From Chloroflexota bacterium (GTDB lineage Bacteria; Chloroflexota; UBA11872), in the NCBI GenBank assembly GCA_965220075.1, contig OZ244806.1, positions 2,519,925-2,583,924 of the forward strand: a DNA stretch of 64,000 nt. Reading direction: 5' to 3'. The notes beneath the pieces are model-generated. The model did not search any database and was not told the DNA's origin. It was given only the letters and a program-made list of their open reading frames with translations. The translations under genes and the position numbers were made by a program. Shown here piece by piece: positions 37,667-63,862 of the stretch; positions within the stretch are counted from its first letter, which is position 1; every line of letters starts with the position of its first letter.

Positions 37667-37674
37667 TTTCGTAG

Positions 37675-37980: not shown

Positions 37981-37982
37981 CT

Positions 37983-38030
37983 GGTGGGCCTAGTGAGACT
38001 GAATGGCGAACTTCCCGCTGGGAGATCCAG
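37983..38030. repeat. 46-bp repeat R4 (GGTGGGCCTAGTGAGACTGAATGGCGAACTTCCCGCTGGGAGATCC); second copy 40376-40425
   Basis: About 40/46 identity between the two copies, both inside the putative island and in the same orientation. Confidence 0.6.
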
Positions 38031-38166
38031 CTGCCAAAGGTCGGCTTGGTGGATGCCGAGGTGATGCGGGTGCCATTCGTCAACCCGACCAGGGAGCGTC
38101 CCCAGACAGAATTGTGAAGCCGCTCGACCTCTGGACGTCCACCACGCCGGGCGCCCCTACGCTAGG

Positions 38167-39717: not shown

Positions 39718-40453
39718 GCTGCTTCGCTGTCGCGATAGAGCATCCCTAACGGTCGGGTGGTCCTCAATAGAGGCCAGTATCACAATAGCTCACAGGTCGC
39801 ATTGACTCAGGGTGTGTCTTCCTCATGAAGCTTGGCCCCGCTCTGCACCGCGAGCCCTGCGGTAGCCGTAGAGTACCCCGCTGGCGACGCAGGAGGCGTT
39901 TCGCTGAGTCCTCTCGCATGCCCAGCATGACTCCTCAGCGAATCCTATGACGGAGGGTGCACGCCCCCGACTCGTCGGGCGTTCCAGGTTCATTCAGCAC
40001 TAAGACGGGCTCTAGGACCGAGAGCACCAAGCCTGCGTGATAGAGAGGATGAGCACGCGCGAGCGCACGTTCCGACTGCACCGAGATACGGATCAGGAGA
40101 TACCGAAACATGCCGTTCACCACGGCTGCCGGCGGCAGTCACGACGTGATCGACCGAACGTGCAGTTGTGGAACGCTCTACCGTCCCGCTCCGACCAATT
40201 CCGCCTCGCGCCGCAGATCCAGGGTCGGAGCCCACTCGAATAGTCACGCGGTTGCGGCCGAGGCTTCCGGCTGCGTCCCTTAGGCGTAACCATCCCCCGG
40301 ACCATGAACTCCGCCCAAAGAGGCAGTGGCCGCGGCGGCCAAGGAGTTGTGAATGCGGAACGCATCGGCTGAAACATGGTGGGCCTAATGGGACTGAATT
40401 GCGAACTTTTCGCTGGGAGGTCCTCATATAGGAGTCGGTCAGACTATTTTGGC

Positions 40454-42190: not shown

Positions 42191-42538
42191 AGGTCCCCTT
42201 CCTTCCCACCTCTCGCAGGTCTCCTTGCGCCACGCCCGGCTTGCACCACCTGCGCTCGACAGTGCAGGGAATCTCGCTTCTCTACGCAGCCAACTAGAAC
42301 CCTGCCGCTGTCTCCAACAGTACTGTCGCCAGAAGTCTCTCTAGGGAAAGAGCAAGATCGCCATGCTTGACTGAACCGCAGCACGAAGGATCTCGATTAC
42401 GTCTAGTTTGGCGGCAGGCACCTCCGATAGGCCTACGGCGACCTCGGCAGAACTGCCGTAGGCTCACGTCGCGCCTCCGTCTTGGAGGTGGTCGTTCGAT
42501 GAGAGGGAGACACGGTCCGCAGGTAACGATGCTGGCGT

Positions 42539-42585
42539 TGGTGGGCCGGGTGCGACTCGAACCCACGACCTTCGGACAGAGAGTC
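42539..42585 (-). other. tRNA 3'-end-like fragment (T-arm GTGGG-TTCGAGT-CGCAC, acceptor CCGGCCC, ACCA) without a matching 5' half
   Basis: Reverse complement GGTCGTGGGTTCGAGTCGCACCCGGCCCACCA. No complementary GGGCCGG acceptor strand lies within 120 nt. It sits at the truncation point of the GH116 fragment. Possibly an old att remnant of a different tRNA. Confidence 0.35.
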
Positions 42586-42608
42586 CAGCCTGACGAGGGT
42601 TCGCCAGC

Positions 42609-43694
42609 TTACTCCAGCCGCCGCCAAGGCTCGCCACTCCTGTAATCCGCTGTGCCGAGTGCCACCCCGAGGCGGCCAGCGCGACGGAAGGCAGGCCAAA
42701 ATGTTGGCAGGACGTTGGCAGGCCGCAGGCGGTGCAAAGCGCAGCATCCGGTGGGATGTAGACCGTCTGTCGGCCCCAACGGGGCGAAGGAAGGAACGGT
42801 GTGTCGCTCGGCTATGCGCGTCGGCCTGCGAGTGGCGGGTGCTGTCTCGCCTGGTGTGCCGGCGGCGAGGGAGGCCGTGGGTGAATCGGCGTCGCCGGTC
42901 GGGCGGTCGTCGAGCTCGCCGTCGGCGCTGAAGTCGTCCCAGAAGTCGAGCAGCGCGTCGCCCCAGGGGATGTCGTGCCAGGCGGTGCGAGCGGTGACGG
43001 TCTGGTCGCCCCACTGCTCGGCATCGGTGGCAACGCCGTCTGAACGCATGTCCAAGCCGCGGAGGCCGTTTCCCACGCGCCAGCGGTTGACGTTGCGCTT
43101 TGGCTCGCCGTACTTCCCGTCGGTGCCGATGAAGTTGGCCAGGGCGACGCAGATCGAGACCCGGACAGGAACGTCCGACAGGTTGGCGGCAACCCAACGC
43201 AGGACGGCGATGGGGAGGCCGCTGTCGTCGGCGCGGCCGGGAATGAGCGGGTTGAAGGCTTCGAGCCGGAGGTCGACGGGCAGGTCCGGGTCGCGCAGAC
43301 AAACCTGGGCCAGCGGATAGGCGGCGTGGAAAGAGGCGCTGGCGAAGCGCGGCAGGCCATGGTGCGGCGCGGGCGAGCCGACCGTACCCTCGAAGTCCAC
43401 CGGGTCGAGATCGCCTTCGAGCAGCCGGGTGACGGGTGGTTTGCCCTGGGCCTGGACGCGGGCGGCGAAGAAGGCGCGGGGCTCGGTCATGTTGCGCGTG
43501 ATGGGCACGGTGGGGACAAAGCCCTTGGCGGGGCGGTTGACGATCTCCCAGTCGCGGAGATTGCCGCGCCCACCCAGCGAGACGGTGCCGGTGCCGATGC
43601 CGCCCAGGGGCATGGCCACGCGCCGCAGCCGCTCGCCGCGGTAGGTGCGCAGGACAGGCCAGGAGGCGTTCAGATCCGGACCGTCGCTGGGCAT
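42609..43694 (-). pseudogene. Glycoside hydrolase family 116 (GBA2-type beta-glucosidase) N-terminal beta-sandwich domain only; catalytic domain absent
   Basis: From ATG 43694. MPLGGIGTGTVSLGGRGNLRDWEIVNRP... matches the GH116 N-terminal domain. The ORF ends after about 360 aa with no (alpha/alpha)6 catalytic domain, and its 3' end runs into the tRNA-like fragment. Confidence 0.5.
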
Positions 43695-43867
43695 AGAGGA
43701 ATCGTGGCTCACGTGCGCGGCCGCGTCAGCATCTGCTTGGGAACGAGAGGCATGATTCACACTAGTGACTGACCGGAGTTGACGGGTCTGGGCTTGATGA
43801 GGCAGGCATGCTGCCACACGTGGGAAAAGCCGCCCGGGCCTTGATGACAGTGAAGGGGGAGCCCGGA

Positions 43868-44380
43868 ATGCCCAAGCCAACCAAGCGGCTCAAGCTGCCG
43901 CATCCAGACCTCACAGATCTGTTGGCAGTCCTCAAGGCCACCGTATCTGGTGAGCGTACGTGCGACGTGACCGGGGCTCAGGTCCGCTATTTCCTCTGTG
44001 ATCCGTGGCCCGAGGACGCGGACCTCGCCATGTACGACGAGGACGGAAACATCTATCTCCCGGAGAGCTTCGCGAAGGCCGACCCAGGTTTCGCCTACCT
44101 GGTTGTGCTGCATGAACACGTCGAGATCACACACAAGCTGGCGGGGCGATCCCACGCCTATGCACATCACCGGGCGCTCCTGGCCGAGCTGCTAGCGGCC
44201 AAAGAGATGTTCAGCGGGCCTGGTGAGTTGCAGCAGTTCCTTAGTAAGAGGATCGCGGGATACCCCGACTGGAAGGTGCCCGACAAGGGTGATGTCGAAG
44301 AGCGGCTCTACCGCTTGCTCCGGGCCCCGAGGCCTTTGAGGGGTCAAATCCTTGAGGTGATGAAGCAAGCGAGGCTTTAG
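43868..44380 (+). CDS. hypothetical protein with HEITH (HExxH) motif; possible small zinc-metallopeptidase-like protein
   Basis: About 170 aa from ATG 43868. Contains LVVLHEHVEITHKLAGRSHAYAHH. No other recognisable homology. Confidence 0.45.
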   Translation: MPKPTKRLKLPHPDLTDLLAVLKATVSGERTCDVTGAQVRYFLCDPWPEDADLAMYDEDGNIYLPESFAKADPGFAYLVVLHEHVEITHKLAGRSHAYAHHRALLAELLAAKEMFSGPGELQQFLSKRIAGYPDWKVPDKGDVEERLYRLLRAPRPLRGQILEVMKQARL

Positions 44381-45182: not shown

Positions 45183-45434
45183 GCTGAGGGAACGCCGGTG
45201 CGCGGGCGGCCGGCCACGGCAGCTGGATTCAGGCTCAAGGCCGGAATGACGAAGGGGGCGGCCAATCGGCGGCATGCCGAAATGGCGCGGCTTGAAGGGT
45301 CCAGGGACCGATGCGAGGGCCCAGGAGTTGTGCGCAGGCAGAGCGGCGCATAAAGTGCGGCGACCTCCATGGCGCCGGAGTTGGTCGCGGGGCTGAAATG
45401 TCCGCCGCCGCCCCTTCATCTAGATGAGGTGCGT

Positions 45435-47201
45435 ATGACGGACCGCATTGCCGACCGCGGGCTGGTCAACGAGCCGTTCTACGTCACCGACTTGAGCGCC
45501 GTGGAACCGGCGGACGCCGTCGGCGCAGTGCCGGCGTTTCACCGCTGGCGGGCGATGGGGTACACCGCCGGCGACATGAGTGGCCAGATGCTGCTGGCGG
45601 GTCCCGAGACGGCGGCGCCGGACGTCACCCTGGACCTGAATGCAAGCGGCTGGCACGCGGTCTCGCTGGGCCTGATGCCGCCGCCGGGCTATGAGGGCGC
45701 CCCGTTGAAGGTGCTGGCACGGCTGAGCGGCGACACGACGCCGACGATGCTGACCGCGCAAGCGGGGCATCCCGACCGCGGGCACGACTTACAGATCGTG
45801 GACCTCTATTGGCGCTCGGCCGACCTGACGGGCCAGCAGCTGGTGCTGGGGCAGCCGCAGTGGCAGACGGCGCCGGTCGATGCCGTGGGCGCCTGGCGGT
45901 CGGAGATCGTGCGGATTGCTTATGTCAAGCTGGTGCCGCTCACCGACGCGGAGGCGGCCGAGGCACAGGCCGAGCGCCAGCACGGCGATACGCGGCGGCT
46001 GTTCGCCCATCAGGACGCGCACGGGCCGCACTATCTGTGGCGGTTGACGGACGCGGAGGGCATTCGGCGCGAGATCGAGCCCTATCGCCACACCGACTTC
46101 GCCCGCATGTATTGGGAAGCCGGCGAAGGCGACATCAGCTACTACTTCAGCAAGATCGCGCGCTGGTGCACGTTCGACGAGGCCGAAGACTTTGCGCGCG
46201 TGGGCGACCGGCTGCACGCGGAAAGCTGGCGGGCGTTCCGGGACCTGGGCGTTGACCCGCTCGATATCGCCATCGAGCACTGCCACGACGCCGGGCTGGA
46301 ACTACATGCGTCGTACCGCGTGGCCGGCTTCTGGTACCCGCCGCCGATCGACCACTTCAATCTGGGGGACACGTTCGCCGCGGCGCATCCGGAATGGCGC
46401 GGGCGGGATCGCAACGGCCAGACGACGCCGCGCATTGCCTATTCCTATCCCGAGGTGCGGGCCTACGTGGTGTCGCTGCTGCGCGAGATGGCCGAGCGCC
46501 CCATCGACGGCGTGTGCCTGTTGTATAACCGGCGCATGCCGCTGGTGGAGTACGAGCCGCCGGTGGTGGCGGCCTTCCAGGAGGAATACGGCCTCGACCC
46601 GCACGCGCTGCCGGCGGACGACGAGCGCTGGCTGCGGTTCCGGGCGCGCGAGCTGACCCAGTTCATGCGCGAGGTGCGGCAGGCAATGGACGAGGCAGGC
46701 ACGGCGCGCGGCAGGCGCCTTGGAGTTTCAGCCGTGGTGATGAACAGCGAGCAGGAGAACCTCCAAAACGCCATGGACCTGGGAGCGTGGGTCGAGGAGG
46801 GTATCGTCGACACCCTGATTCCCTACACCTCGGCGCCGGGCGGCGACTCGCACGCCGTGTCGTGGGAGAACCCGGCGGATCTGGCGTATTTCGTGGAGCT
46901 GGTGCGCGGGACGGACTGCGTGCTGGCGCCCGGGATGATGCCGCGCCACCGCCCGCCCGAGGACGTGCGCCGCCAGGCGGCGGGCATCTACGGCGCGGGC
47001 GCCGAGCACCTGTTCTTCTGGGACGCGGCGGGCGGCTCCGGGCGGGCGAACTTCGGCGCGATGTGGAATGCGCTGCGGCGGTTGGGGCACCGCGAGGAGA
47101 TCGAGGCCTGGCGCGCGGCGGGCGAGCCCTCCCTGGAACCCACCGCGCACGACGTGGACGTGCTGGACGATTGGGATCTCTCGTATACGACGCCGGGCTG
47201 A
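45435..47201 (+). CDS. GHL10-like (glycoside hydrolase-like family 10/DUF187-type TIM barrel) protein, paralog A
   Basis: About 589 aa. AAHPEWRGRD, YSYPEVRAYVVSLLREMAERPIDGVCLLYNRRMP and WLRFRARELTQFMREVRQAM resemble the GHL10 blocks (hPeW, PeVr...DGixlDyxR, WxxxRxxxitxfv). Roughly 55-60% identical to the next gene. Confidence 0.75.
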   Translation: MTDRIADRGLVNEPFYVTDLSAVEPADAVGAVPAFHRWRAMGYTAGDMSGQMLLAGPETAAPDVTLDLNASGWHAVSLGLMPPPGYEGAPLKVLARLSGDTTPTMLTAQAGHPDRGHDLQIVDLYWRSADLTGQQLVLGQPQWQTAPVDAVGAWRSEIVRIAYVKLVPLTDAEAAEAQAERQHGDTRRLFAHQDAHGPHYLWRLTDAEGIRREIEPYRHTDFARMYWEAGEGDISYYFSKIARWCTFDEAEDFARVGDRLHAESWRAFRDLGVDPLDIAIEHCHDAGLELHASYRVAGFWYPPPIDHFNLGDTFAAAHPEWRGRDRNGQTTPRIAYSYPEVRAYVVSLLREMAERPIDGVCLLYNRRMPLVEYEPPVVAAFQEEYGLDPHALPADDERWLRFRARELTQFMREVRQAMDEAGTARGRRLGVSAVVMNSEQENLQNAMDLGAWVEEGIVDTLIPYTSAPGGDSHAVSWENPADLAYFVELVRGTDCVLAPGMMPRHRPPEDVRRQAAGIYGAGAEHLFFWDAAGGSGRANFGAMWNALRRLGHREEIEAWRAAGEPSLEPTAHDVDVLDDWDLSYTTPG

Positions 47202-47260
47202 TGGCAGGGGCGGGCGCTGTGCCGTTGGGATTCACCCTCACCCCAACCCTCTCCCATCAA

Positions 47261-47381
47261 GAGACCTTTGCGTAACCCCTCGTCATTCCCGCGCACGCGG
47301 GAATCTAGGCCCACCCAACCTGGAACCGCGCATGGTTCCGCCCGGACATCCTTGGCCTGACCGGGTTATGCAAACATCTCT
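47261..47381. mobile_element. MITE-like element (121 bp) with IS5-type terminal inverted repeats, between the two GHL10 paralogs
   Basis: Left TIR GAGACCTTTGCGTAA (47261-47275), right TIR TTATGCAAACATCTCT (47366-47381). Internal hairpin CATTCCCGCG-CAC-GCGGGAATC and the core AGGCCCACCCAACCTGGAAC shared with 33083-33180. Confidence 0.6.
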
Positions 47382-47479
47382 TCGAGGGAGAGGGGGCCGG
47401 ACTCTCACCGGAAAAGGGAGTCGGGGTCGGACCCTAACCTTCTGCTGGACGCGGATTTGAGCGATAGGAGGCGGTGGGC

Positions 47480-49285
47480 ATGACTGAAACGGCAACCGCG
47501 AGCGATCTCTTTGCCGACATGTGGCTGAGCAGCGCGCCGCAATACCGCACGGACCTGGACCGCTGCGAGCCGGCCGCGGCGCTGAGCGCCACGCCCAAGC
47601 GGCGGCACTGGCGGACCATGTCGTTCGAGACGGACGACGTCGCGGGAACCATGATCGCGGCGGGTCCCGAAACCGCCGCGCCGCCGGTGCGCTATCCGCT
47701 GCGCGCCAGCGGCTGGCACGCGGTGTCGGTGGGCGTCGTGCCGAGCTTCAAGTGCACCGACGACACCGCCACGCTGGCGGTCCCCGTCAAGCTCAGCGGC
47801 GACGACACCTATTCGGTGCTCACGCTAAACCTGCCGTCGCTGCAAACCCGGCTGCTGCCGGACTGGCGCGGGCCGGTGGTGGTGGAGATGTTCTGGAAGA
47901 TCGCGGATCTCACGGACATGGACCTCGACATCCTCCAGCTGGTCCGACGCGTTGCGCCGGGCGATCACTTTGGATCGTTGAGCGGCCCGGCGGCGCGCGT
48001 GGCCTACGTCAAGCTGGTGCCGCTGACCGACGATGAGGTCGCGGTCTGGCAGGCGGACCAGGCCCGGAAAGACACGGGCCGCCTGTTTGCGCACAACGAC
48101 TCACACGGGCCGCACTATCTGTTCCGGCTCAACACCCCAGAAGAGGTGCGGCGCGAGATCGAGCCCTACCGCGACACGGATGTCTCGCGCATTTACTGGG
48201 AGGCGGGCGGGGGCGACCGGACGCGGTATTTCAGCCGCATCGCCCGCGCGGAGATCATGGAAGGGCAGGAGGACTTCGGGCGGCGCGGCGACCGCATGCA
48301 CGCCGAAAGCTGGCGGGGCTTCCAACGGCAGGGCGTTGACCCGTTCGACGTGGCGCTGGCGCACACCCACGCGCTGGGCATGGAGTTTCACGCGTGCTAT
48401 CGCGTGGCGGGATTCAAGTATCCGCCGCCGCTGGACGGCGCGAGCCTGGGCGAGGTTTTCTTCGACCGGCATCCCGAATGCCGCGGCGTGGACCGGGCGG
48501 GCAACCGCACGCCGCGCATGGCCTACAGCTATCCCGCGGTGCGGGAGTTCGTGATCGCGGTGTTGCGGGAGATCGCGGAGCGACCCGTGGACGGCGTGTG
48601 TCTGCTGTTCAACCGGCGCATGCCGCTGGTGGAGTACGAACCGCCGGTGGTGGAGGGGTTCCAACAGGAATACGGGCTGGACCCGCGGGAGCTGGCGGCG
48701 GACGATCCCCGCTGGCTGGCCCACCGCGCGCGCACGCTCACCGGCTTCATGCGCGAGTTGCGCGCGGCGCTGGACGACCTGAGACCGGCGGGCACGAAGC
48801 GCCTTGACGTCGGCGCGGTGGTGGCGGCCACCGAGCAGGAGAACCTGCAAGACGGCATCGACCTGCGGGCGTGGGTGAGCGAGGGACTGATTGACACGCT
48901 GATTCCTTATAGCTCGGAGCCGGTCTACGACAGCCACGAGCCAGCCTGGACTGACCCGTCGCAGTTGGCCTTTTTCGTCGAGCTGGTGCGCGGGACCGAG
49001 TGCGTGCTGGCGCCCAACCTGATGCCGCGGCACCAGTCGCCGGAGGACTTCCGCCGCCGGGCGTCAACCGTCTACGGGGCCGGCGCGGGCCACATGTTCT
49101 TCTGGGACGCGGCGGGCGGCTCGGGCCGGGCCAACTTCCAACCCATGTGGAGCGGACTGCGGCGCCTGGGCCACCAGGACGAGATCAGCGCCTGGCAAGC
49201 CGCCGGCGAGCCCCCGCTGCCGCACACGATCAAGCCCCTGCGGCTGTGGGACGGGTGGGATTTCGCCTACGAGACGCCGGGGTAG
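47480..49285 (+). CDS. GHL10-like TIM-barrel protein, paralog B
   Basis: About 601 aa from ATG 47480. Colinear with paralog A over the full length (PETAAP...ASGWHAVS(L/V)G...VAYVKLVPLTD...HAESWR(A/G)F...YSYPAVREFVIAVLREIAERPVDGVCLLFNRRMPLVEYEPPVV...). Confidence 0.75.
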   Translation: MTETATASDLFADMWLSSAPQYRTDLDRCEPAAALSATPKRRHWRTMSFETDDVAGTMIAAGPETAAPPVRYPLRASGWHAVSVGVVPSFKCTDDTATLAVPVKLSGDDTYSVLTLNLPSLQTRLLPDWRGPVVVEMFWKIADLTDMDLDILQLVRRVAPGDHFGSLSGPAARVAYVKLVPLTDDEVAVWQADQARKDTGRLFAHNDSHGPHYLFRLNTPEEVRREIEPYRDTDVSRIYWEAGGGDRTRYFSRIARAEIMEGQEDFGRRGDRMHAESWRGFQRQGVDPFDVALAHTHALGMEFHACYRVAGFKYPPPLDGASLGEVFFDRHPECRGVDRAGNRTPRMAYSYPAVREFVIAVLREIAERPVDGVCLLFNRRMPLVEYEPPVVEGFQQEYGLDPRELAADDPRWLAHRARTLTGFMRELRAALDDLRPAGTKRLDVGAVVAATEQENLQDGIDLRAWVSEGLIDTLIPYSSEPVYDSHEPAWTDPSQLAFFVELVRGTECVLAPNLMPRHQSPEDFRRRASTVYGAGAGHMFFWDAAGGSGRANFQPMWSGLRRLGHQDEISAWQAAGEPPLPHTIKPLRLWDGWDFAYETPG

Positions 49286-50246: not shown

Positions 50247-50275
50247 GCCGGTGGCCCAGGCTGCGTGCAGCCTGG
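50247..50275. repeat. REP-type hairpin GGCCCAGGCTGC-GTG-CAGCCTGGG; sister hairpin CCCACGCTGC-GTG-CAGCGTGGGCCACCG at 50411-50440
   Basis: Two near-identical 10-bp-stem hairpins 165 bp apart, related to the hairpin at 29975-30000 and sharing the GGTGGCCC/GGGCCACC flanks of the REP family. Confidence 0.6.
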
Positions 50276-50548
50276 GAAGAACAGTGTGGCTCCTTCGCTC
50301 GATACCGGCATGGACAGTCCCGATCCTACTCAGGGAGGACTGGTTCAACGCTTGGGTTGTCGGGTAGCCCGGTCGCGGCGACAGCCCCGCCTCACAGTCC
50401 CTGTCTTGAGGGAATCCCACGCTGCGTGCAGCGTGGGCCACCGAGCCATACACTGCACGAGTGCCTAATACTGTTAGGAATGCTCTGAAAAAGCCCGGTG
50501 GTTGCGGCAGGGCCTATGCTCACGAGCGACGGATAGCCGCTGAGGGCC

Positions 50549-53360: not shown

Positions 53361-53673
53361 GATCGTCTCCCCCGCTGCTGGGAGTCTGTCCGAGAAACAA
53401 TGTTCTAAACCATATGCGTCATTAGTGGAGTGTAAAGATGCTAATTACTCCACGACAAAGTCCAGATTGCTATAAGCAGGTTATTGCGTGGCGTTTTTCG
53501 TCTCCAGGAACGAATCCTCGGACAGGCTCCTAGCAGGTTTGAACAAGTTTCCTTTTGCTCCCACGTCCATACAGGTGCAGTTCCCTCAAGGCTGCCGACA
53601 TCGCATCTTCTCCCAACAGCTCCCACAGACTAAACAGGAAGTGCTCGCCCAAACTATAGTTACCAACTATTTT

Positions 53674-53741
53674 GCTCCCAGCGCTGTGGCATGTACCAGG
53701 AGACCCCGAGCGAAACGCATCAAATTATGGTGTGGTGCGTT
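53674..53741. repeat. Second copy of 67-bp repeat R3 (see 35960-36026)
   Basis: About 62/67 identity to copy 1, in the same orientation. Not accompanied by a tRNA-half. Confidence 0.7.
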
Positions 53742-54033: not shown

Positions 54034-54804
54034 CTAACAGCCGAAGCCCAGGGTGAAGATGCAGAGCATGCCCTCTATGAACTTGTCGATGTTGCCCAAG
54101 GCGTTCAAGCCAAGTTCGGCCAGGGTCAACAGCGCTTCGGCTGTGATCGCCCCGGCCTCGAGCAGCTTGAGCAGGTCAGCGTTGCCGGATCGCTGGGCGA
54201 GCTCCGCGATCCCGGGGCCGTTGGGATCGGCGCCGGCGTCCAGCAGCAGCTGTACGACCGCGATGTCGCCGCGATCGACGGCTAGGGCCAGGACCGATAG
54301 GCCTTCCTCCGCCAGGGTGTTGGGATCGGCGCCGGCGTCCAGCAGCATTTTCAGAATCTCGGCTTCGCCCTCTATCACGGCCCAGACCACGACCGCGAGG
54401 CCGGCTCCGTCCTTGGCATTAGGGTCAGCGCCGGCGTCCAGCAGCATTTTCAGAATCTCGGCTTCGCCACCGCGGACAGCCAAGGACGCAACAGGGTCGC
54501 CGTCCGACGTGAGGGCGTCGGGATTGGCGCCGGCATCCAAGAGCAGTGGCACGATTTCCGAGTCGCCAAGCTCAACGGCGACCGGCAAGGCCGAACGGCC
54601 GTCTTCGTCCCGGTATTTGGGGTCGGCGCCGGCCCAGATCGCGAGCTCGACAAGCGTCGTCCGGCGTTCGGAAACGTGGTCCAGCAGCAGCGCATCGTCG
54701 CTGAGGATCAGCCGTGCCAGGAAAAACAGAAGCACGGGCCCAGCGAGCACGAGAGCCACGGCGGCGTAGAGGACGAACCGAAGTCGGGCTGTCACGGAGT
54801 CCAT
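54034..54804 (-). CDS. Ankyrin-repeat protein with N-terminal transmembrane anchor
   Basis: 256 aa. N-terminal TM helix LYAAVALVLAGPVLLFFLARLIL, then about 6 ankyrin repeats (LLDAGADPN... repeated; GDPV/GLAVVVWAV...). Confidence 0.85.
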   Translation of the reverse strand: MDSVTARLRFVLYAAVALVLAGPVLLFFLARLILSDDALLLDHVSERRTTLVELAIWAGADPKYRDEDGRSALPVAVELGDSEIVPLLLDAGANPDALTSDGDPVASLAVRGGEAEILKMLLDAGADPNAKDGAGLAVVVWAVIEGEAEILKMLLDAGADPNTLAEEGLSVLALAVDRGDIAVVQLLLDAGADPNGPGIAELAQRSGNADLLKLLEAGAITAEALLTLAELGLNALGNIDKFIEGMLCIFTLGFGC

Positions 54805-55105: not shown

Positions 55106-56170
55106 CTAAGTCACATCGTCGAACGCCCAGGCGAACACCCCACGCACGTCCTCGCGGTGATCGCCGCGGCAGCCGGCCTCCGCCTGATCGCCGAAGACTG
55201 CCTGATAGATGCCGACGTTGTTGTCGTTACCGAGGTGGTTCTCCACGATGTCGTTGAGGTCGACGCAGGTCGTGGGCCAGCCCAGGACCGGCCCCGCGGC
55301 CAGCGCCTCGCGGATAATCCGTACGATTTCCGAACCTTCCCCCTCCCAGAACAAGGCATAGCCCAGAGGAAGCCGGCCGCCAGAGTTGTTGAGGGTCACA
55401 TCGACCCCGGCGTCGACGAGGATGCGCACGATTTCCGTGTGGCCTCGAAAGATGGCTTCGAACAAGAGCGGATCGCCGTTGCTTTCCTTGGCGTTCACGT
55501 CCGCCCCGGCGTCCACCAGGATCCGCACGACGTTCGTGTGGCCTCGCCAGATCGCGGAATGAATCACTGGGTCGCCATCGGCGTCCCTGGCGTCCACGTT
55601 GGCGCCGGCGTCAATCAGGATCTGCACGACATCCGCGTGGTCCCGCCAGATCGCCGAATGAATCACCGGGTCGCCGTCGGAGTCCGTGGCGTTCACATTG
55701 GCGCCGGCTCCTGCCAGGATCCGCACGATCTCGACGTGGTTGCGCCAGACCGCCTCGCGAATGAGGGGATCGTTGTCCGAGGTCCGCACATTGGCGTTCA
55801 GACCGCCGGCCACAAGGGTGCGCACCTGCTCGGTCTGGCCCCGCCAGACGGCTGAGTAAAGGGCGTCATCCACCAGCGGCAGGGACGGCGCTGCGACAGC
55901 GGGTGGGGGAGCGGGTGGCGCGAGATCGAACGCCCAGGCAAACACCCCGCGCACGTCCTCGCGGTGGTCGACCTGGCAGCCGGCCTCGGCCTGGTCGCCA
56001 AAAACCCGCTGGTAGATGCCCACGTTGTTCTCCCGGCCCAGGTGCTGTTCCACGACGTCGTTTAGGTCGACACAGGTGGTGGGCCACTGGGCGAACACCG
56101 GTGTCGCGAGCGCCGCAGCAGCGGCCACCGCAACCACCACCGCAATGAGAGTCGGTCGTACCCGTGTCAT
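55106..56170 (-). CDS. Secreted ankyrin-repeat protein with duplicated Cys-containing N- and C-terminal domains
   Basis: From ATG 56170. Signal peptide MTRVRPTLIAVVVAVAAAAALATPVFA. The roughly 55-aa module WPTTCVDLNDVVEQHLGRENNVGIYQRVFGDQAEAGCQVDHREDVRGVFAWAFD is repeated almost verbatim at the C-terminus, flanking about 5 ankyrin repeats (ILAGAGANVNATDSDGDPVIHSAIWRDH...). Confidence 0.85.
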   Translation of the reverse strand: MTRVRPTLIAVVVAVAAAAALATPVFAQWPTTCVDLNDVVEQHLGRENNVGIYQRVFGDQAEAGCQVDHREDVRGVFAWAFDLAPPAPPPAVAAPSLPLVDDALYSAVWRGQTEQVRTLVAGGLNANVRTSDNDPLIREAVWRNHVEIVRILAGAGANVNATDSDGDPVIHSAIWRDHADVVQILIDAGANVDARDADGDPVIHSAIWRGHTNVVRILVDAGADVNAKESNGDPLLFEAIFRGHTEIVRILVDAGVDVTLNNSGGRLPLGYALFWEGEGSEIVRIIREALAAGPVLGWPTTCVDLNDIVENHLGNDNNVGIYQAVFGDQAEAGCRGDHREDVRGVFAWAFDDVT

Positions 56171-56525
56171 AGGCCATTTTCCCTTGTACTCGAACTGTCC
56201 GAAGTCTCTGGCTGATCGGCCTACCCTGTCAATGAGTGCATGGCAATCGCAGTCTGCCCACAGCTCGATACCCGTGTAGCCCGCCATCAGCCGGCAACGC
56301 CGCCTGCCTATTGAGCAAGTTGGTCAGCGGGAAGCGGCCGGCAGTTGCCCGGGCACGGTGCCGGCCCCGGCGTCGAGGCGATCACGACAAGGTGGGGGGC
56401 TTGGACTCCGCGGCCGGCGCCAACCACGAACCAAGGCAAAAGTATGGTGTCTTGAAGAACTGTGGCAGGGCGCGTCTGGCAACATCCAAACAACTATGGT
56501 GTCTTCCAAACCTGTAAACCCGCGT

Positions 56526-56601
56526 TGGAGCCCACACCCGGAATTGAACCGGAGACCTCGTTCTTACCAAGAACGCGCTCTACCGACTGAGCTATGTGGG
56601 C
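56526..56601 (-). tRNA. tRNA-Thr (anticodon GGT), CCA encoded
   Basis: The reverse complement folds canonically: acceptor GCCCACA/TGTGGGC, D-arm GCTC-AGTCGGTA-GAGC, anticodon stem CGTTC/GAACG with loop TTGGTAA, T-arm TCCGG-TTCAATT-CCGGG, CCA. Two CAAAnnTATGGTGTCTT motifs lie within 85 nt of its 3' end. Confidence 0.9.
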
Positions 56602-57830: not shown

Positions 57831-57907
57831 TGGAGCCCAAGGTGGGGCTCGAACCCACAACCTGCGGTTTACAAAACCGCCGCTCTGCCGATTGAGCTAC
57901 CTGGGCC
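57831..57907 (-). tRNA. tRNA-Thr (anticodon TGT), CCA encoded
   Basis: The reverse complement gives acceptor GGCCCAG/CTGGGCT, D-arm GCTC-AATCGGCA-GAGC, anticodon stem GCGGT/ACCGC with loop TTTGTAA, T-arm GTGGG-TTCGAGC-CCCAC, CCA. Confidence 0.8.
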
Positions 57908-57979
57908 TGAATCTGTTACGCAGTCAGCATATGATCGACTTGCCCTCATCTGCGCAAGTTTTGCGCAAGTCCTTCCTGC

Positions 57980-59101
57980 TCATCGAGTCAACACCGCTTC
58001 GAGGGCGCGCGCAGCTTCGTGCTTCGCATCCATCGCTATGTGTCCGTAAGTGTCCTTCGTGACCTGGATGCTCGCGTGCCCAAGCAACTCGCTGACGATG
58101 GCCAGTGGCACGCCAGCGCTGAGCATTAGGCTGGCACAGCAGTGACGAAGGTCGTGCCAGCGCATGCGTGCCACGCCAGCTTGCTCAAGCGCCCTGTGAA
58201 AGCGTCGGAGGACGTTACGTGGATCCTGCTCGGTACCGGTGGCTGACGGAAACACTAGGTCGCGGTCGTCCCATTCGGGTCCAGCAAGAAGTCGTTGCCC
58301 AATCTGGCGGCCACGGTGTCCGCGCAGCGCACGAACGAGATCGGGTGCCAGCGGCACAACTCGATCACTCGTGCGTGTCTTGGTCGGCACCACCAGAATC
58401 CCTACATTCGGCATTCGTGTCACCGATCGCGTTATGCGAGCGGTTTGACCATCCAGATCGACATCGGACCAGCGTAAGCCCAGCAGCTCACCCTGACGAA
58501 CACCTGTGAAAGCGGCGAACCTAACCTCGTACTCAACCGGCGTCCCTTCCACCGCTCGCAGGACAGCAAGCACACGCTCAATGCTCGGTACCTCAACCAC
58601 GCGCCGTGGCACGGTTGGAGGGATAACAGCGCGTGCCACGTTGCCTGCGACCATCTTCAGACGAACCGCATCTTCGAGTGCCTTGTGCAGCACTCGATGG
58701 ACGTGAACGATCGTACGCGGATGTAGACCGCCACTCTTGCCGTCACGCCTACCCGACACCGCTGCCCGCGCGTACAAGTCTTGAATTTCCATCGGATGTA
58801 GGCGGCCCATCTTCCGGTCGCCAATGTGTGGAATTATGTGAAGTTCCGCCAGTTGTCCGTACCGCCTCACCGTTCTTGCCGACGCATGCGTTCCATGTTG
58901 CGCCAACCAGTGGTGCAGATACTCGGCAACCGTGAGGTTCTGAGCGTCGAAGAGGATTCCTCCCTCAAGTTCGCGTCGACGCTTGTCAGCGCGCGCCAGC
59001 GCCTCGCGTTTCGTCGCTGCCGATCTGGCCACTGTACGCTTCAGAACTTGACTGTAGACACGGCATTGCCAACGTCTGCCGCGCTTCTCAAAACTAGCCA
59101 T
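57980..59101 (-). CDS. Site-specific tyrosine integrase (phage-integrase family)
   Basis: About 373 aa from ATG 59101, with a GGAGG RBS. N-terminal SAM-like/core-binding domain and C-terminal catalytic domain with R...HDLRHCCASLMLSAGVPLAIVSELLGHASIQVTKDTYGH (R-H-R-Y tetrad region). Confidence 0.9.
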   Translation of the reverse strand: MASFEKRGRRWQCRVYSQVLKRTVARSAATKREALARADKRRRELEGGILFDAQNLTVAEYLHHWLAQHGTHASARTVRRYGQLAELHIIPHIGDRKMGRLHPMEIQDLYARAAVSGRRDGKSGGLHPRTIVHVHRVLHKALEDAVRLKMVAGNVARAVIPPTVPRRVVEVPSIERVLAVLRAVEGTPVEYEVRFAAFTGVRQGELLGLRWSDVDLDGQTARITRSVTRMPNVGILVVPTKTRTSDRVVPLAPDLVRALRGHRGRQIGQRLLAGPEWDDRDLVFPSATGTEQDPRNVLRRFHRALEQAGVARMRWHDLRHCCASLMLSAGVPLAIVSELLGHASIQVTKDTYGHIAMDAKHEAARALEAVLTR

Positions 59102-59111
59102 TGATTTCCTC

Positions 59112-59300
59112 CTACATACCAGCGCGCTCCCGGATAAATCGGAGCAGCGCCTCACGTGGAATGCGGTAGTCGCGCCCCCCTAACTTGAAGCTGGGGAGTT
59201 CGCCGCTGCGAATCATTTCGTAAATCGTCTTGCGCCGACACCGAAGAAGTTCGGCGCACTCGGTCGGTGTGAACACGACCTGATTGATGTCGACGGTCAC
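59112..59300 (-). CDS. Excisionase-family DNA-binding protein (HTH, MerR-like Xis)
   Basis: 62 aa. FTPTECAELLRCRRKTIYEMIRSGELPSFKLGGRDYRIPREAL matches the excisionase DNA-binding domain. Lies immediately upstream of int. Confidence 0.75.
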   Translation of the reverse strand: MTVDINQVVFTPTECAELLRCRRKTIYEMIRSGELPSFKLGGRDYRIPREALLRFIRERAGM

Positions 59301-59743
59301 GCCGCCAACCTGTCAGACTCCGACACATGGGGCCGCCCTGATCCGCCGTTTCGTGGAAGGCCGGGGTTGCTACCGTTCACCATTCGCACCCACACTATCG
59401 TTCGCCCAGTCCTGGCCGGATTTCTGCGAAGTCACAGCGCCCTGCCTACCGTTAACTCGACGGCGGCCCCCAATGACGCGCGAGCGACGCCGGCCGAGCA
59501 CAGGTGCAGAAGCAGACGCGACCGCCTGATTGGGCGTTGCGGATTTGACAGCCGGTCCATCCGCAAACGTGCCGGTAGACGCACGGGCTGATGAGATGCT
59601 GCAATCAACGCCTCGCATGGGCGAGTCTAGGCTGGCGACGACCGATCTGGGAATACAGGTTTCTGGAATCCCAATCGGATCCCTTGCACGCCGAGGGTCC
59701 CACCGGCGGGCAGCCGCAACTCACGAACGCCACACGGCCCGGA

Positions 59744-60259
59744 TCATCGCCGCCGCAGGGTGTTGAGCACGGGAGCCAGCATGGGAACCAGCGATGCCGG
59801 CGTCGGGCATTCGATGAATCGGTTGCCGAAATGGTTGCGCATGTCCGTCCGGTTCTCCCCCTCGAGCCCCAGCCCCAGCCCCAGCACTTCGGTCCGGGCC
59901 TCGGCCGCATGACGGTTCAGCCGCACGACCGTGTATGGATCCTCGTGCCGCCCATCGTGGATGACCACCAGCACCTTCACAGGCTCCGGCCGGGCCCTCA
60001 TCTGCTTCAGCATCCGCGTATAGGACGGCCCCACGCGGCTCCCGGTTTCGGCCTGCAGCCCCGCCGGTCGCTCCAAGGCCGGCTCCGACGCGTCGTCCAT
60101 GCCGAGCAGCGGGTCCGCGCCCTCGAACGCGACCACCGCGTGCCAGATACCCAGCTGCGCACAGGCCAAGTGCAGCGTGGCCGCCGCCACGCGGGCGGCC
60201 ACCATACGCACGATCTCTATCGAGCCCGAGCAGTCCAGCAGGACACCGATCGCCCCCCT
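59744..60259 (-). pseudogene. von Willebrand factor A (vWA) domain protein relic lacking a start codon
   Basis: The reading frame opens directly onto the MIDAS motif (AIGVLLDCSGSIEIV...), with a TGA two codons upstream and no ATG/GTG/TTG. The remaining about 170 aa follow the vWA pattern (VKVLVVIHDGRHED...). Confidence 0.5.
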
Positions 60260-60441
60260 TCAGCATCCGGCTCAAGCTCGTGCTGGACCACGAAGGGGGT
60301 GGCGTCCTGACTGCGGATCACGGCGCGCCTACTCAGACGGCCATGGCGGTTGCTTCACTCGAGCGTGTGCATCAACGGTGGCAGGTCGAGCGGCTCGGCG
60401 TTACGCATAAGGGGGCTAGGCGGCGCCAGGTGTCCCACGCT

Positions 60442-61632
60442 GGAGACCTTTGAATAATTGGGGATGGAGCGCGTGGGGAGGGGCATCGGCAACGCCTGGA
60501 GGCCGGCGCGGCGTCCGGTCGGGCGGGCCGGCACGAGATCCCGTGCCGCGGGACCCCGCGCGCGGCGCACTGGTCCCGCGGTCAGCCCGTGGCCCAGGCC
60601 AGGGTGTCCGCTTTGCGCAGGTTGTAGGCCATGAGCTTGAACCACAGCTCCACGGTGTTGCGCCCCAGCCCGCGGTAGCGCACCCGCTGGTAGCCATAGC
60701 TGCGCTTGAGGGTGCCGAAGACCTTCTCCACCAGCGCCCGGCGGGGCGCGATGAGGGCGTTACGCCGCTGCTGCCAGACGGGGAGCGCCCGTTGGTGTTT
60801 GTGGGAGCGGTGCATGATCCGGTCGTTGATCCCCTGGGCCTGCAGCCACCGGCGCCGGCGCGTGGACTCGTAGGCCCGATCGCCGTACACCGCCCGCTCG
60901 TCCCCGCTCACCAAGGCGTCGGCCACCTCGCTCTCGGAGACGTTGGCGGGGGTCAACGCCGCCCGCCGCACCACGCCCGTGTCCGCATCCACCCCAGATG
61001 CACCTTGTAGCCAAAGTGGGAGCGGCCGCCCCGCCCCCGTTGGGTCCACGCCGCCTCTGGATCGGTGGCACTCGGCGCCCCGCGCCCCGCCGCCAGCGGC
61101 GGGCGCCGCACCTGCGCCGCCACCAGGGTGGCGTCCAGCAGCGTGCCCTGCTTCAGCACCAGGCCCTGCGTGTCCAGTTGCGCCGCCAGCTCCGTAAACA
61201 ACGGCGCGCTGAGCCCGTCGACCTCCAACGCCTGGCGAAAGCGGCTGATGGTGGAGTGGTCCGGCGTGGCGTCCTGCAGGCCCAGCCCCACAAAGCGCCG
61301 GAAGGAGAGCCGGTCGCCCAGCGCCTCTTCCAGCTGGGGGTCCGAGAGGCTGTACCACTGCTGGAGCAGCAGCACCTTGACCATCAGCAGCGGCGGATAG
61401 CTGGGCCGCCCGCGCGGGGCGGCGTGCACGCCCGCCACGACCTGCCCGAGCCGCTCCCAGTCCACCGCGTCGTCGATCCGCTCCAGCCGCTGGTTCTGGC
61501 CCAGCGTCTCCGACACCACCGCTTCCGCCAGCGACGGCCGGCCCATGTCCCGGTGCATACGACTTCTCCCCCATCATCCGCCTGGCGACGCCCAATACTC
61601 CGCTCCGCCCCCGGATTTACGCAAAGGTCTCC
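60442..61632 (-). mobile_element. IS5-family insertion sequence (about 1.19 kb) with 16-bp TIRs GGAGACCTTTGMRTAA and a frameshifted transposase
   Basis: TIRs at 60442-60457 (GGAGACCTTTGAATAA) and 61617-61632 (TTACGCAAAGGTCTCC). The transposase N-terminal (DUF4096/DUF772) part is ORF 60953-61558, and the DDE part (GDRAYES...) is in another frame at 60582-about 61000. This is either a programmed frameshift, as in the IS427/IS1031 groups, or inactivation. Confidence 0.7.
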
Positions 61633-61784
61633 AAGAGCGGGACCTGGCAGATCGAATTGCAGACCTTGATGCTGAGCTCGAGCGTCTGAATGCTGAATGA
61701 GATCAGCATGAGACGGAACTGGCCGCAGAAGGAGAGAGAGCCGATAAGGGGATCCGACGAGCTATCTGGGCCGATGGCGATGAG

Positions 61785-62153
61785 TTGATCGCTGCGGTCG
61801 GGAAGGTGCTTGCTGACCTCGGATTCGCGGTGCGCGACATGGACGCAGAGTTAACGGAAGGCGAGCCGAAGCGTGAAGACCTGCGGCTGGCGCTTAAGGA
61901 CGAGCCTGGGTGGCAAGCGATGGTTGAAGTAAAGGGCTACAGCAGCGGCACAAAGACAAACGACAATCGCCAAATCCGTGAGCACCGCGAACGCTACATC
62001 CTAGAGGAGGGCCGACTGCCTGACCTGACGGTGTGGCTCGCCAACCCATATCGGCGGATGGACCCTTCCACAAGGCCTGCTCCCGACCAAAATGTGAAAG
62101 ACGCCGCCGTGGCTGTCGACGCTGTCCATGTGCTTGCGACAGATCTCTACTAG
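61785..62153 (+). CDS. hypothetical protein (TTG start; weak PD-(D/E)xK-like D...EVK motif)
   Basis: 122 aa. VRDMDAE...AMVEVKGY. No ATG or GTG is available in frame after the upstream stop at 61698-61700. Confidence 0.4.
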   Translation: MIAAVGKVLADLGFAVRDMDAELTEGEPKREDLRLALKDEPGWQAMVEVKGYSSGTKTNDNRQIREHRERYILEEGRLPDLTVWLANPYRRMDPSTRPAPDQNVKDAAVAVDAVHVLATDLY

Positions 62154-62584
62154 CAGTGGGCGCTGGTCGCAGCGGGAAGCCTTGACGCAGGAGCTGTTGG
62201 CCGGAGCTTGGTGAATGCCGATCCCGGCCTGTGGACTCCGCCGGTCTCAGGTTCCGGCACCTAGCTCGATTCGTTGCAACTGACTCACGGGGAATTAGTG
62301 GCCTGGAGCGCTCGGAGCTACGAGCTTCTCGCTGGGCATTCCAAATGCAGAGGGGTGGCGGCACGTAGCGAGTGCTGCTGCCTTGGACATTCGCAACTCA
62401 ACCGCGCCGAATAAGGGAGATTGGTGGCTCAGTTTCCTCGAATCGACACCGTGACCTTCTAGGAGTTATCCGATCTACGGAGGTCAACTCCGAGAGCGAG
62501 ACACATGACCTGTTTCAGCCATTGCCATCGTGGCACCGTTGATCAGAGTCCATTCCGTGATCGAAATAGACTCCTGGTGTCGAA

Positions 62585-63610
62585 TTACCGCGGAGCTCTA
62601 ACTCGGTGCGATATGGACTGACCCACGCCTCTAAGGGACAGCGCAAGACCACCGTCGAAACGCAGCCAGGCCTGGTCAGGCGAAAATACATCGTCTGGTA
62701 TATAGCAAAACACCGGAATTCCCACTTCTTCTTTTTTCTGCCAGATGGACGTGTCTTTAGTCAGTTCCCGGTATAGATGCAGAGCGGTCTGGATGACTAT
62801 TGCATGGCTGTACCGCACGCCACACATCGTTAGGTGGCTCAGAATGTGAATCTCGCGATCCTTCACGACTCTGAGTCTGGCTCTGTCCTTGTCTCCCTCC
62901 GGGAGCATCAGCCGCTGCACAGGTGGGGAGTGAGCCGCTTCGGTGTTGACCGTTACCCTTATGACATCCTTCAGAGTGACCCCCCGGTTGTCGAAAAGCA
63001 CCAGCTGCTGTCCGAGCCAGCGGTCACAGTCGAACCCCTGATCGGACTCGGACTCGAACAACCCCTCCGGCTTTAACGTCCACGGCGTTTCCGGCGTTGC
63101 TTTGTTGAGCCAATCCGTCATCCCGGATAACGGCCACTCGATGACGAAACTAAGCGGCTGTGGGCCCATGGGAAGAACATGCGTAGCCTCCGGCTCCCTG
63201 GTCTGCTCATCCAGTTTCGACAACTCCATGTAGCCGCCTCTTACGTCCACTGGAGCAAGGGTCAGGGTCCTCCGGTTGCTTGGGACCTTCCGGATCCTGC
63301 TGAAGCCCAGTTTCGCCATCTGACAAGAGTCGCCGTCCAGCAAGCGCGGGCTCCGGTCGTCGCCGAGCACCAACTTCCTCAGAAAAATGGAGCAATGCCT
63401 TGCCAGAGATGCGACTGTATCGCTGAGCTGATCGGGTGGCTGGCTTCCGCATCCGTCGATTACCAGTTGGAGGTCAACCATTGCTTCTCGAATTCTCTCT
63501 GCCTTGTCTCGGTTTCCTACGGTCACCGGGCTCCCTGTTGTTTTGACAAACTGTACTGGTTGCTGTGAATCTGCCTTTTCTCCAACGTCGGCCATGGCTA
63601 GCTCCTCCAT
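62585..63610 (-). CDS. hypothetical protein (341 aa), lower-GC cargo gene
   Basis: Long clean ORF at about 55% GC in a 67% GC background. No recognisable domain. Confidence 0.5.
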   Translation of the reverse strand: MEELAMADVGEKADSQQPVQFVKTTGSPVTVGNRDKAERIREAMVDLQLVIDGCGSQPPDQLSDTVASLARHCSIFLRKLVLGDDRSPRLLDGDSCQMAKLGFSRIRKVPSNRRTLTLAPVDVRGGYMELSKLDEQTREPEATHVLPMGPQPLSFVIEWPLSGMTDWLNKATPETPWTLKPEGLFESESDQGFDCDRWLGQQLVLFDNRGVTLKDVIRVTVNTEAAHSPPVQRLMLPEGDKDRARLRVVKDREIHILSHLTMCGVRYSHAIVIQTALHLYRELTKDTSIWQKKEEVGIPVFCYIPDDVFSPDQAWLRFDGGLALSLRGVGQSISHRVRAPR

Positions 63611-63786
63611 CCGCCAATCCGAGAGTGAACAGATATCGTTCTCATTGGTGAGGCCTCCTCCGTGTGGCCATCATTGTCGCCGCTGCGCTGCATTCTCCAT
63701 ACGGGGCTTAGGACATGGATTCGCTCAGGAGAAAAGTGAGCGCGCCGACAGGAAGTCATCAGAAAAGTAAACGCTGTCGGGACTGG

Positions 63787-63862
63787 TGGACCGAATTGGA
63801 CTCGAACCCACGACCTCCGCAATGCGAGTGCGGCGCTCTTGCGCCTGAGCGTCGGCCCGTCG
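63787..63862 (-). tRNA. tRNA-like gene, probable tRNA-Ala (anticodon CGC) with non-canonical T-stem; CCA encoded
   Basis: Reverse complement GGGCCGA-C-GCTC-AGGCGCAA-GAGC-G-CCGCA-CTCGCAT-TGCGG-AGGTC-GTGGG-TTCGAGT-CCAAT-TCGGTCC-A-CCA. The acceptor and anticodon stems pair well. The T-stem 3' strand CCAAT pairs poorly with GTGGG, and only one nucleotide separates the acceptor and D stems. Could be a degenerate or fragmentary tRNA. Confidence 0.4.

Follow-up and report, generated by a model that had tools for sequence, protein, structure and literature searches.

Evidence for an IS5-type mobile-element family inserted in hairpin loops in a Chloroflexota genome

We analyzed a 64,000-nucleotide stretch of contig OZ244806.1 (assembly GCA_965220075.1, positions 2,519,925–2,583,924 of the forward strand), referred to as the window, from a Chloroflexota metagenome-assembled genome (MAG) of the lineage UBA11872. 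The window very probably contains part of an IS5-type mobile-element family that comprises a defective insertion sequence (IS) at 60442–61632, three miniature inverted-repeat transposable elements (MITEs) bearing the same type of terminal inverted repeat (TIR), and an intact partner copy elsewhere on the contig. The members of this family are inserted in the loops of hairpins that resemble repetitive extragenic palindromic (REP) sequences.

A defective IS5-family element with intact ends

The IS occupies 1191 bp on the minus strand (60442–61632) and retains 16-bp TIRs at both ends. The transposase-distal repeat (60442–60457, plus strand) is GGAGACCTTTGAATAA and is identical in all ten relatives that share 89% identity with the element (...TTATTCAAAGGTCTCC), while the transposase-proximal repeat (61617–61632) reads GGAGACCTTTGCGTAA on the minus strand. 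The two 16-mers agree at 14 of 16 positions, and the consensus for the IS and MITE ends is the 16-bp sequence GGAGACCTTTG[A/C][A/G]TAA. Allowing up to three mismatches, this 16-mer is found seven times in the window against 0.30 expected occurrences, a count reached in none of 100 dinucleotide-preserving shuffles of the window. Besides the two ends of the IS, the sites lie at 32945 (+), 33068 (−), 33165 (−), 47260 (+), and 47366 (−). These results bear out the initial annotation, made from the sequence alone, which had described an IS5-family element whose terminal repeat recurs in the window.

Assignment to the IS5 family used profile scores computed on the transposase open reading frame (ORF) after repair of a single missing G, described below. 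The repaired ORF scores 109 bits against PF01609 (DDE_Tnp_1) and, in its N-terminal part, 93 bits against PF05598 (DUF772). It also matches the NCBIfam equivalog NF033581 (transpos_IS5_4) with 279 bits, against a cut-off of 140, over profile positions 1–284 of 285. Among plasmid-borne IS5-family transposases, the closest share no more than 46% identity with the window protein, and by the usual criteria the element would be an unnamed IS when its sequence is set against these plasmid-borne relatives. Its size and TIRs are those of the IS5 group (~1.2 kb and ~16 bp), and its relatives measure 1192–1193 bp with the same ends. The single ORF of ~320–340 amino acids that characterizes the group is missing from the window copy and present in 11 of 11 close relatives (325 amino acids).

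As initially annotated, the transposase is divided over two reading frames. An N-terminal fragment of 201 amino acids (60953–61558, minus strand), also annotated as a gene in the public assembly, contains DUF772 and the start of the DDE domain in its first ~188 residues, its last 12 residues being out of frame. The remainder of DDE_Tnp_1 is encoded in the other frame at 60582–60991 (minus strand). The frames separate at 60992–60995 (minus strand), where the run CTGGGGTGG contains four G residues (G4) versus five (G5) in every intact relative. Adding one G at this position generates a single 325-residue ORF that aligns without gaps to a 325-residue database protein (P0001) at 98% identity, with the sequence ..KVHLGVDADTG.. 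continuous across the site. Ten genomic copies that encode a member of this 325-residue cluster (L122–L131) are 1192 bp long, 89% identical to the window IS, and all read GGGGG. An intact copy closer in sequence, L134 (1193 bp, 96.5% identical, G5, 325-residue ORF), maps to 2.68 Mb of the 3.25-Mb contig ctg245979_13x_l (ENA and NCBI), from which the window derives or to which it is nearly identical, and lies ~1.8 Mb from the window copy on that contig.

These comparisons identify the window IS as a probable transposase pseudogene with intact ends and no programmed frameshifting, and it should be annotated as such. Programmed −1 ribosomal frameshifting occurs in some IS5-family subgroups and in IS3 and IS1, and the initial annotation had raised it as the possible cause of the split; the first ORF (61558–60953) overlaps the downstream frame by ~40 nt, so that slippage by −1 within the G-run would yield the full-length protein and make the window copy autonomous. 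We searched the break for a slippery heptamer (X XXY YYZ) and found none in its context, CAT CTG GGG TGG. Moreover, all close relatives, including the copy in the same genome, carry the extra G and a single 325-residue ORF, and it is a single repaired ORF that covers the 285-position IS5_4 model from 1 to 284. Frameshifting is thus an extremely improbable account of the split. An assembly error would make the window copy truly intact and autonomous, and here the contig name, which indicates 13x coverage of a long-read contig, and the position of the difference in a homopolymer both speak for such an error. However, a second assembly of the window locus differs over 6 kb by two single-nucleotide polymorphisms and one 6-bp tandem-repeat unit, and not by homopolymer lengths, yet it retains G4 and the split gene calls. 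This second version favors a real mutation, with a weight limited by the fact that the two records are perhaps not independent, and we regard an assembly error as rather improbable. With its transposase broken by the loss of one G, the window copy would be mobile only if an intact copy supplied the enzyme. The initial picture of an autonomous and non-autonomous family within one window is therefore to be revised, since the copy in the window is defective and the intact one is a distant neighbor on the contig.

Three MITEs with the termini of the IS

A 122-bp MITE, which we call the M47 type, spans 47260–47381 (plus strand) and is bounded by the inverted termini AGAGACCTTTGCGTAA and AGAGATGTTTGCATAA. 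It contains an internal dRS3-like hairpin (47285–47304, ATTCCCGCGCACGCGGGAAT) and is placed between two ORFs encoding GHL10-domain paralogues (45369–47201 and 47474–49285). Both the shared termini of this element, initially given as 47261–47381, and its location between the GHL10 paralogues were correctly recognized from the sequence. Look-ups for P0001 and for the GHL10 ORF as delimited here gave no entry.

The repeat at 32944–33180 had been described as two tandem units and proved to be organized differently. The 16-mers at 33068 and 33165 both lie on the minus strand as direct repeats, and so constitute neither an inverted pair nor tandem units. Instead, a second M47-type element, MITE B, is interrupted within its hairpin loop by a 139-bp element, MITE A (32945–33083, plus strand), whose TIRs GGAGACCTTTGCATAA and GGAGACCTTTGCGTAA match at 15 of 16 positions. 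The nested element is flanked by a 4-bp duplication, GCAA, at 32941–32944 and 33084–33087. MITE B spans 32894–33180 and measures ~144 bp once the 139 bp of MITE A are removed. Specifically, its left arm (32894–32944, plus strand), absent from the initial description, provides the terminus CGAGACTTTCGCGTAT, a half hairpin CATTCCCGCG.., and one half of a small hairpin, GTCCCGC, with GCAA after it, and its right arm (33084–33180, plus strand) contains the core AGGCCCCACCCAACCTGGAAC..ACATCCTGGGCCT..CCGGGTTAGGCAAACGTCTCC. The element at 47260–47381 is 80% identical to this right arm over 85 nt and 85% identical to the left arm over 33 nt. The repeat at 32894–33180 is thus best annotated as a nested pair.

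The intact IS of L134 is itself enclosed by an M47-type element, the third copy in this genome. Removal of the IS and one GAAC from this locus restores the hairpin CATTCCCGC-GAAC-GCGGGAATC, and the three M47-type copies then align end to end. A profile of the three copies detects 47260–47381 (E=4e-38) and 32894–33180 (E=2e-31) in the window, in agreement with the conserved core that had been proposed for the short elements. The core had further been extended to 30105–30283, and this part stands for one module only: the hairpin GTCATTCCGGCCTTGCGCCGGAATCCAGGCCC (GTCATTCCGGCC..GCCGGAATCCAGGCCC), ~32 nt long (nhmmer E=0.38), is common to both, and the rest of that region is another repeat, GGGCAACC..GGTTGCCC.

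The short elements have the properties expected of MITEs, being 122, 139, and ~144 bp long and non-coding, with TIRs zero to four mismatches from that of the IS and an intact IS on the same contig. Their description as derivatives of the IS is not supported. The M47 profile matches the IS only over positions 2–20, so that the likeness is limited to ~19 terminal nucleotides, and we detected no other matches to the IS that would point to an origin by internal deletion. Such an origin defines only type I MITEs, elements related through the TIR alone being type II, and by sequence the MITEs described here would be of type II. As single strands they fold better than shuffled sequences (z = −4.2 and −3.6), mostly through the TIR stem and internal hairpins. 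A search of the IS and MITE regions against Rfam families gave no match. The M47 core, GGAATCYAGGCCC(N0-1)ACCCAACCTG, had 0 matches in a scan of JGI metagenomes, and the full core was found in none of 120 sampled genome loci; the subfamily therefore looks lineage-restricted.

Part of the interior of MITE A (32996–33021, TGTCCACCATGTCTCCGGTCTGGACA) is identical at 24 of 26 positions to the terminus of an IS481-family element at 30291–30316. If this match is taken at face value, MITE A consists of IS5-type ends carrying an IS481-type end.

Insertion into the loops of hairpins

The IS and the MITEs are located in the loops of REP-like hairpins of the forms ATTCCCGC-N4-GCGGGAAT and CCCTCTCCC-N5-GGGAGAGGG. 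The MITE at 47260–47381 lies in a loop between the halves CCCTCTCCC (47247–47255) and GGGAGAGGG (47386–47394). Its empty site is preserved in the orthologous loci L136 and L137 (GHL10 92% identical), which read CCCTCTCCC-GTCAA-GGGAGAGGG and lack the MITE. The window IS is flanked by AGGTGTCCCACGCT (60428–60441) and AAGAGCGGGACCTG (61633–61646), which together make up an imperfect GTCCCGC-type palindrome. Each of the ten IS copies with 89% identity (10/10), and likewise L134, lies between the halves of a ATTCCCGC...GCGGGAAT-type hairpin; these copies occupy nine distinct sites. L122–L131 represent eight of the sites, because L125 and L126 are two assemblies of one locus and the left flank of L122 recurs in L128. 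A reading of the palindromic sequences beside the IS and 47260–47381 as extended TIRs was also considered and rejected, because empty sites display the complete hairpin without an element.

A scan of 185,579 species genomes (596 Gb) for GAGACCTTTGCRTAA gave at least 120 loci, and the counts that follow refer to the loci listed. Because single matches to a 15-mer are expected by chance in 596 Gb (an estimated ~2000), only inverted pairs were counted. There are at least 82 short inverted TIR pairs, 84–322 bp in length, plus several full-length ISs. Where the G+C content of a locus is at least 50%, a perfect stem of at least 6 bp centered on the duplicated bases is present in 9 of the 20 empty sites reconstructed, versus 0.8% of random positions (binomial p=1.6e-14). 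In AT-rich genomes, a centered stem is present in only 2 of 23 reconstructed sites. The minimum free energy of empty and random sites did not differ (p=0.29); this test is uninformative because GC content varies between loci, and the centered-stem test was used instead. Among the stems, at least three types with unrelated sequences can be distinguished (ATTCCCGC, CCCTCTCCC, and CTTCCCC), which favors recognition of structure over recognition of sequence.

The same kind of loop can hold another type of element. In L135 (GHL10 94% identical), an IS481-family element at 4767–6155 is found in the same CCCTCTCCC...GGGAGAGGG loop between the GHL10 paralogues. From the sequences, two IS families appear to have inserted independently into one loop, IS481 in L135 and a MITE in the window, and such loops would attract, or safely accommodate, more than one IS family.

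Other palindromic families are present in the window. One, GGTGGCCCGACCTTCAGGTCGGGCCACC, is repeated three times (14682–14717, 16934–16964, and 17785–17820), and a perfect 30-nt inverted pair, TCCCAGGCTGCACGCAGCCTGGGCCACCGG, is separated by 20 kb (29969–29998 and 50248–50277). These palindromes may be further REP-like hairpins and possible targets.

Target-site duplications and mobility

Some intact IS copies are flanked by 4-bp duplications, GAAC in L134, GTTC in L127, and GTAG in L125/126. Among the short TIR pairs from the genome scan, with the ends set at GAGACC, 42 of 82 have exact flanking repeats of at least 5 bp; the repeat is 5 bp long in 28 pairs, 6 bp in 9, 7 bp in 2, and 9 bp in 3. 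Shifting the right flank by 30 nt as a control left 0 of 82 pairs with a repeat longer than 3 bp. We tried two definitions of the element end. A start at GAGACC gives mostly 5–6-bp duplications; with GGAGACC, those of the Chloroflexota IS lineage measure 4 bp. As the targets have the form C-NNNN-G, the sequence alone fits either definition. Together with the empty site in relatives and the further copy in the genome, these duplications support the initial proposal that the non-coding elements with this TIR behave as MITEs.

Two TIR pairs ~1.3 kb apart, in L060 and L005, were considered as copies of this IS and rejected from their ORF content. Read by eye, one contains an IS110-type transposase-like ORF, and the other contains an apparent sugar aminotransferase gene between chance ends. 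In L075, a 2.5-kb contig of a Thermoplasmata archaeon MAG, a 144-bp TIR-bounded element (624–767) has a 5-bp duplication, ACAGC; this is either a cross-domain occurrence of the MITE type or a binning error. At L122 and L128 the left flanks of the IS are identical and the right flanks are different, which on present alignments indicates an IS-mediated rearrangement between strains.

Over window positions 31531–44056, the sister strain L132 (contig ctg836550_21x_c) has 98.2% identity and contains both nested MITEs, which places these insertions before the strain split.

Several observations weigh against a family that inserts actively into hairpin loops. A perfect duplication is found in only 3 of 11 related IS copies (L127, L125/126, and L134) and is absent or mismatched at seven others. 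The window IS itself has none (CGCT versus AAGA), so that the 4-bp duplication, for which the initial annotation had advised a check, is present at MITE A and the IS copies named above and missing at the window IS. The half-hairpins flanking the window IS differ by two indels. The flanking repeats of 47260–47381 have decayed to ATCAA/TTCGA, matching at 3 of 5 positions, and they fit a 5-bp duplication, as does the 5-nt loop, rather than one of 4 bp; the duplication length or the element end is thus not uniform. The flanks of MITE B, CTAAC and CAACG, are unconvincing as a duplication. Presence/absence polymorphism of MITEs was not seen between the window and L132, which both contain the two MITEs at 32894–33180, and recent MITE activity would therefore find no support in this comparison. 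Lastly, part of the hairpin preference could be due to the survival of neutral insertions. For the missing duplications, we infer recombination between IS copies, because L122 and L128 have the same left flank and upstream genes and a different right flank.

The last of these points leads to a reading in which the link with hairpins does not reflect target choice, either because insertions occur anywhere and neutral intergenic ones persist or because the hairpin halves belong to the mobile unit. The hairpins are intergenic, where insertions are tolerated; the IS481 element in the very same loop of L135 suggests general hot or safe spots; and in low-GC genomes hairpins accompany few of the reconstructed sites. 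Against this reading, the duplication is the loop itself, with perfect stems on both sides, and 11 of 11 IS copies of the lineage, at nine sites, use one hairpin type. Even if all hairpins are intergenic and intergenic DNA makes up 10% of the genome, 9 of 20 compares with at most 8% among the loci listed, giving p ~1e-5 by our own calculation. Membership of the halves in the mobile unit is contradicted by the empty sites, where the whole hairpin pre-exists without the element. We consider an absence of target choice unlikely. That the short elements are structural repeats of the REP or bacterial interspersed mosaic element (BIME) kind, or protein-binding sites that resemble IS ends, and not transposase substrates, is highly improbable. 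Their mosaic interiors, with nothing in common with the IS beyond ~19 nt, and their stable folding (z = −4.2 and −3.6) would suit such repeats. However, both of their ends correspond to the IS TIR, arranged as an inverted pair, target duplications occur, an empty site is known, and more than 60 such pairs with 5–6-bp duplications occur across many genomes. An IS5-type family with hairpin-loop insertion remains our preferred reading.

A gene read through into MITE B

The ORF at 34057–33248 (minus strand) is extended by 59 codons (33068–33247, minus strand) through loss of its stop codon. The resulting ORF, 34057–33068, encodes 329 amino acids. Five homologues (99% and 66–69% identity) all end ..F(A/x)IY at the position of window residue 270, and the codon after this residue is TAA in the sister strain and CAA in the window (33247–33245). 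Of the added codons, 22 belong to the spacer and 37 to MITE B, and the protein terminates in ..AETFA at a TAA located in the TIR of MITE A. That ORF 33068–34057 receives its C-terminus and stop from a MITE, as initially stated, is literally true for this sequence, but the tail is MITE-encoded because of the TAA-to-CAA substitution, and homologues end 59 codons earlier. The C-terminus is accordingly a consequence of stop loss as judged from these alignments, not an exaptation common to relatives, and the 59-codon tail should be annotated as read-through into repeats. Because the TIR, read inward, encodes ..ETFA-stop, ETFA forms the C-terminus of three unrelated ORFs in the window.

Other features of the window

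An IS481-family element occupies 30291–31530 and encodes a 377-residue transposase (31453–30320) with rve and LZ_Tnp_IS481 domains between 39-nt TIRs with 82% complementarity. The insertion is recent: a 4-bp duplication, GAAT, flanks the element, and the 98%-identical sister L132 contains a precise empty site, catttgtGAATcagggc. A 1470-bp Logan short-read contig (L121) is identical to window positions 31503–32972; its two ends fall 28 nt within the right-hand terminus of the IS481 element and within the nested MITE, an example of how repeats break short-read assemblies.

The defective IS is located in a region, 57831–63858, that looks like an integrated island. This region begins with a tRNA-Thr (57831–57906), followed by a tyrosine-recombinase/phage-integrase gene (59155–57980) and unannotated ORFs, and ends with a tRNA-Ala (63784–63858). 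Partial tRNA-like repeats at 35887–36027 match 56505–56574 (83%) and 53660–53741 (90%) and may be old attachment sites. Tandem 99-bp repeats at 54216–54633 and 55371–55766 translate on the minus strand as ankyrin repeats (..ILIDAGANVDARDADGDPVIHSAIWRGH..). Proteins with such repeats are a typical feature of sponge symbionts, and their presence here fits the sponge-metagenome origin of the nearest relatives.

Comparison with known elements

IS5 of E. coli is ~1.2 kb long, encodes one transposase of ~325 amino acids with DUF772 and DDE_Tnp_1, and has a 16-bp TIR of the form GG..AATAA(G) and a 4-bp duplication. The element described here resembles IS5 in size, in the single ORF of its intact relatives, in its 16-bp TIR, and in the 4-bp duplication at some of its relatives. 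It differs in a protein that is only distantly related (the best plasmid-borne IS5-family matches share at most 46%), in TIR sequence (GGAGACCTTTGC.. versus GGAAGGTGCG..), and in its target, a hairpin loop versus YTAR for IS5.

ISNme1, an IS5-family element of Neisseria meningitidis, has the TIR GAGACCTTTGCAAAA and is the proposed parent of the MITE 'ATR' (PMC4596501, Table 2), an attribution based on common TIRs only (PMC4596501). In this comparison of TIRs, GAGACCTTTGCAAAA is nearly identical to the GAGACCTTTGCRTAA found here. The hosts differ, Betaproteobacteria versus Chloroflexota, and ATR is AT-rich whereas the MITE interiors described here are GC-rich. The Neisseria genome also holds dRS3 hairpins of the form ATTCCC-N8-GGGAAT (PMC1797815), and the hairpin at 47285–47304 fits this formula. 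It is the one exact match to the 20-bp formula in the window, against 0.09 expected at up to one mismatch; in the fetched loci there are 27 exact matches in 16 loci. Looser hairpins of the type (gtc)ATTCC-N12/13-GGAAT(ctag) begin at 29858, 29914, and 30113 (spaced by 56 and 199 bp), and a further looser ATTCC-type copy lies at 45223–45250 in inverse orientation. The layout at 29858–30137 recalls the neisserial arrays of dRS3 and Neisseria intergenic mosaic elements (NIMEs), in which repeated 20-bp units flank segments of 50–150 bp, here in Chloroflexota.

In Porphyromonas gingivalis, ISPg1/ISPg9 and the MITEs BrickBuilt and MITEPgRS have common 12-nt ends, GAGACC(A/T)TTGCA, and the two MITEs retain no transposase remnant (PMC4596501). 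Our scan recovered such a TIR pair with a 5-bp duplication at the Porphyromonas locus L107. BrickBuilt differs in containing an internal minisatellite, and hairpin-loop targeting is not described for it.

Strict targeting of REP sequences is documented for IS1397/ISKpn1 and ISPsy8 (IS3), ISPpu9/10, ISPa11, and IS621 (IS110), and ISRm22 (IS4), with every copy at the REP symmetry axis and a short duplication; the strict cases all belong to the IS3, IS110, and IS4 families (PMC1525189). IS1106 of Neisseria, of the IS5 family, is REP-associated only in the looser 'type 2' sense (PMC1525189), in contrast to insertion in the loop itself as found here. The elements described here differ from the strict cases in family, in using at least three unrelated stems, and in having MITEs of their own that carry the target. 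With at least three unrelated stems in use, it seems to be shape that is recognized and not one particular sequence. All parts of the system belong to known kinds; less documented are the strict loop insertion by an IS5-type element and the target-carrying MITEs.

Proposed mechanism and significance

By analogy with the IS5 family, the DDE transposase would bind the GGAGACCTTTGCRTAA ends, excise the element, and insert it at a staggered cut. Insertion would leave a 4-bp duplication, or 5–6 bp if the element starts at GAGACC. The three MITEs (47260–47381, 32894–33180, and the nested 139-bp element) could be moved by transposase from the intact copy on the contig. Since the 122-bp MITE carries a REP-like hairpin, it could act as a landing pad for further copies, which would account for the nested MITE in the window and for the intact IS inside the third MITE copy. 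Side effects in the window are a longer spacer between two paralogous genes and the MITE-encoded tail on the stop-less gene.

A broader possibility, which we put forward as speculative and on balance doubtful, is that an IS5-family DDE lineage recognizes its targets by their shape, the loop that forms when a GC-rich hairpin is extruded, and not by sequence, and that its MITEs carry and multiply the pad, with hairpin, MITE, and IS combining into self-nesting mosaic arrays, across at least Chloroflexota, Pseudomonadota, Nitrospinota, and Desulfobacterota. The neisserial NIME arrays possibly have the same source, an extension prompted by the coexistence in Neisseria of the ISNme1 TIR and the dRS3 formula ATTCCC-N8-GGGAAT.

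The biological value of the finding is modest: an IS5-type element and its MITEs insert into hairpin loops, and this is documented with empty sites. TIR-bounded elements of this kind drive rearrangements, as at L122 and L128, which have one IS flank in common. The GAGACCTTTGC terminus, familiar from Neisseria and Porphyromonas, also delimits MITE-like elements across numerous uncultured lineages, both marine and symbiotic.

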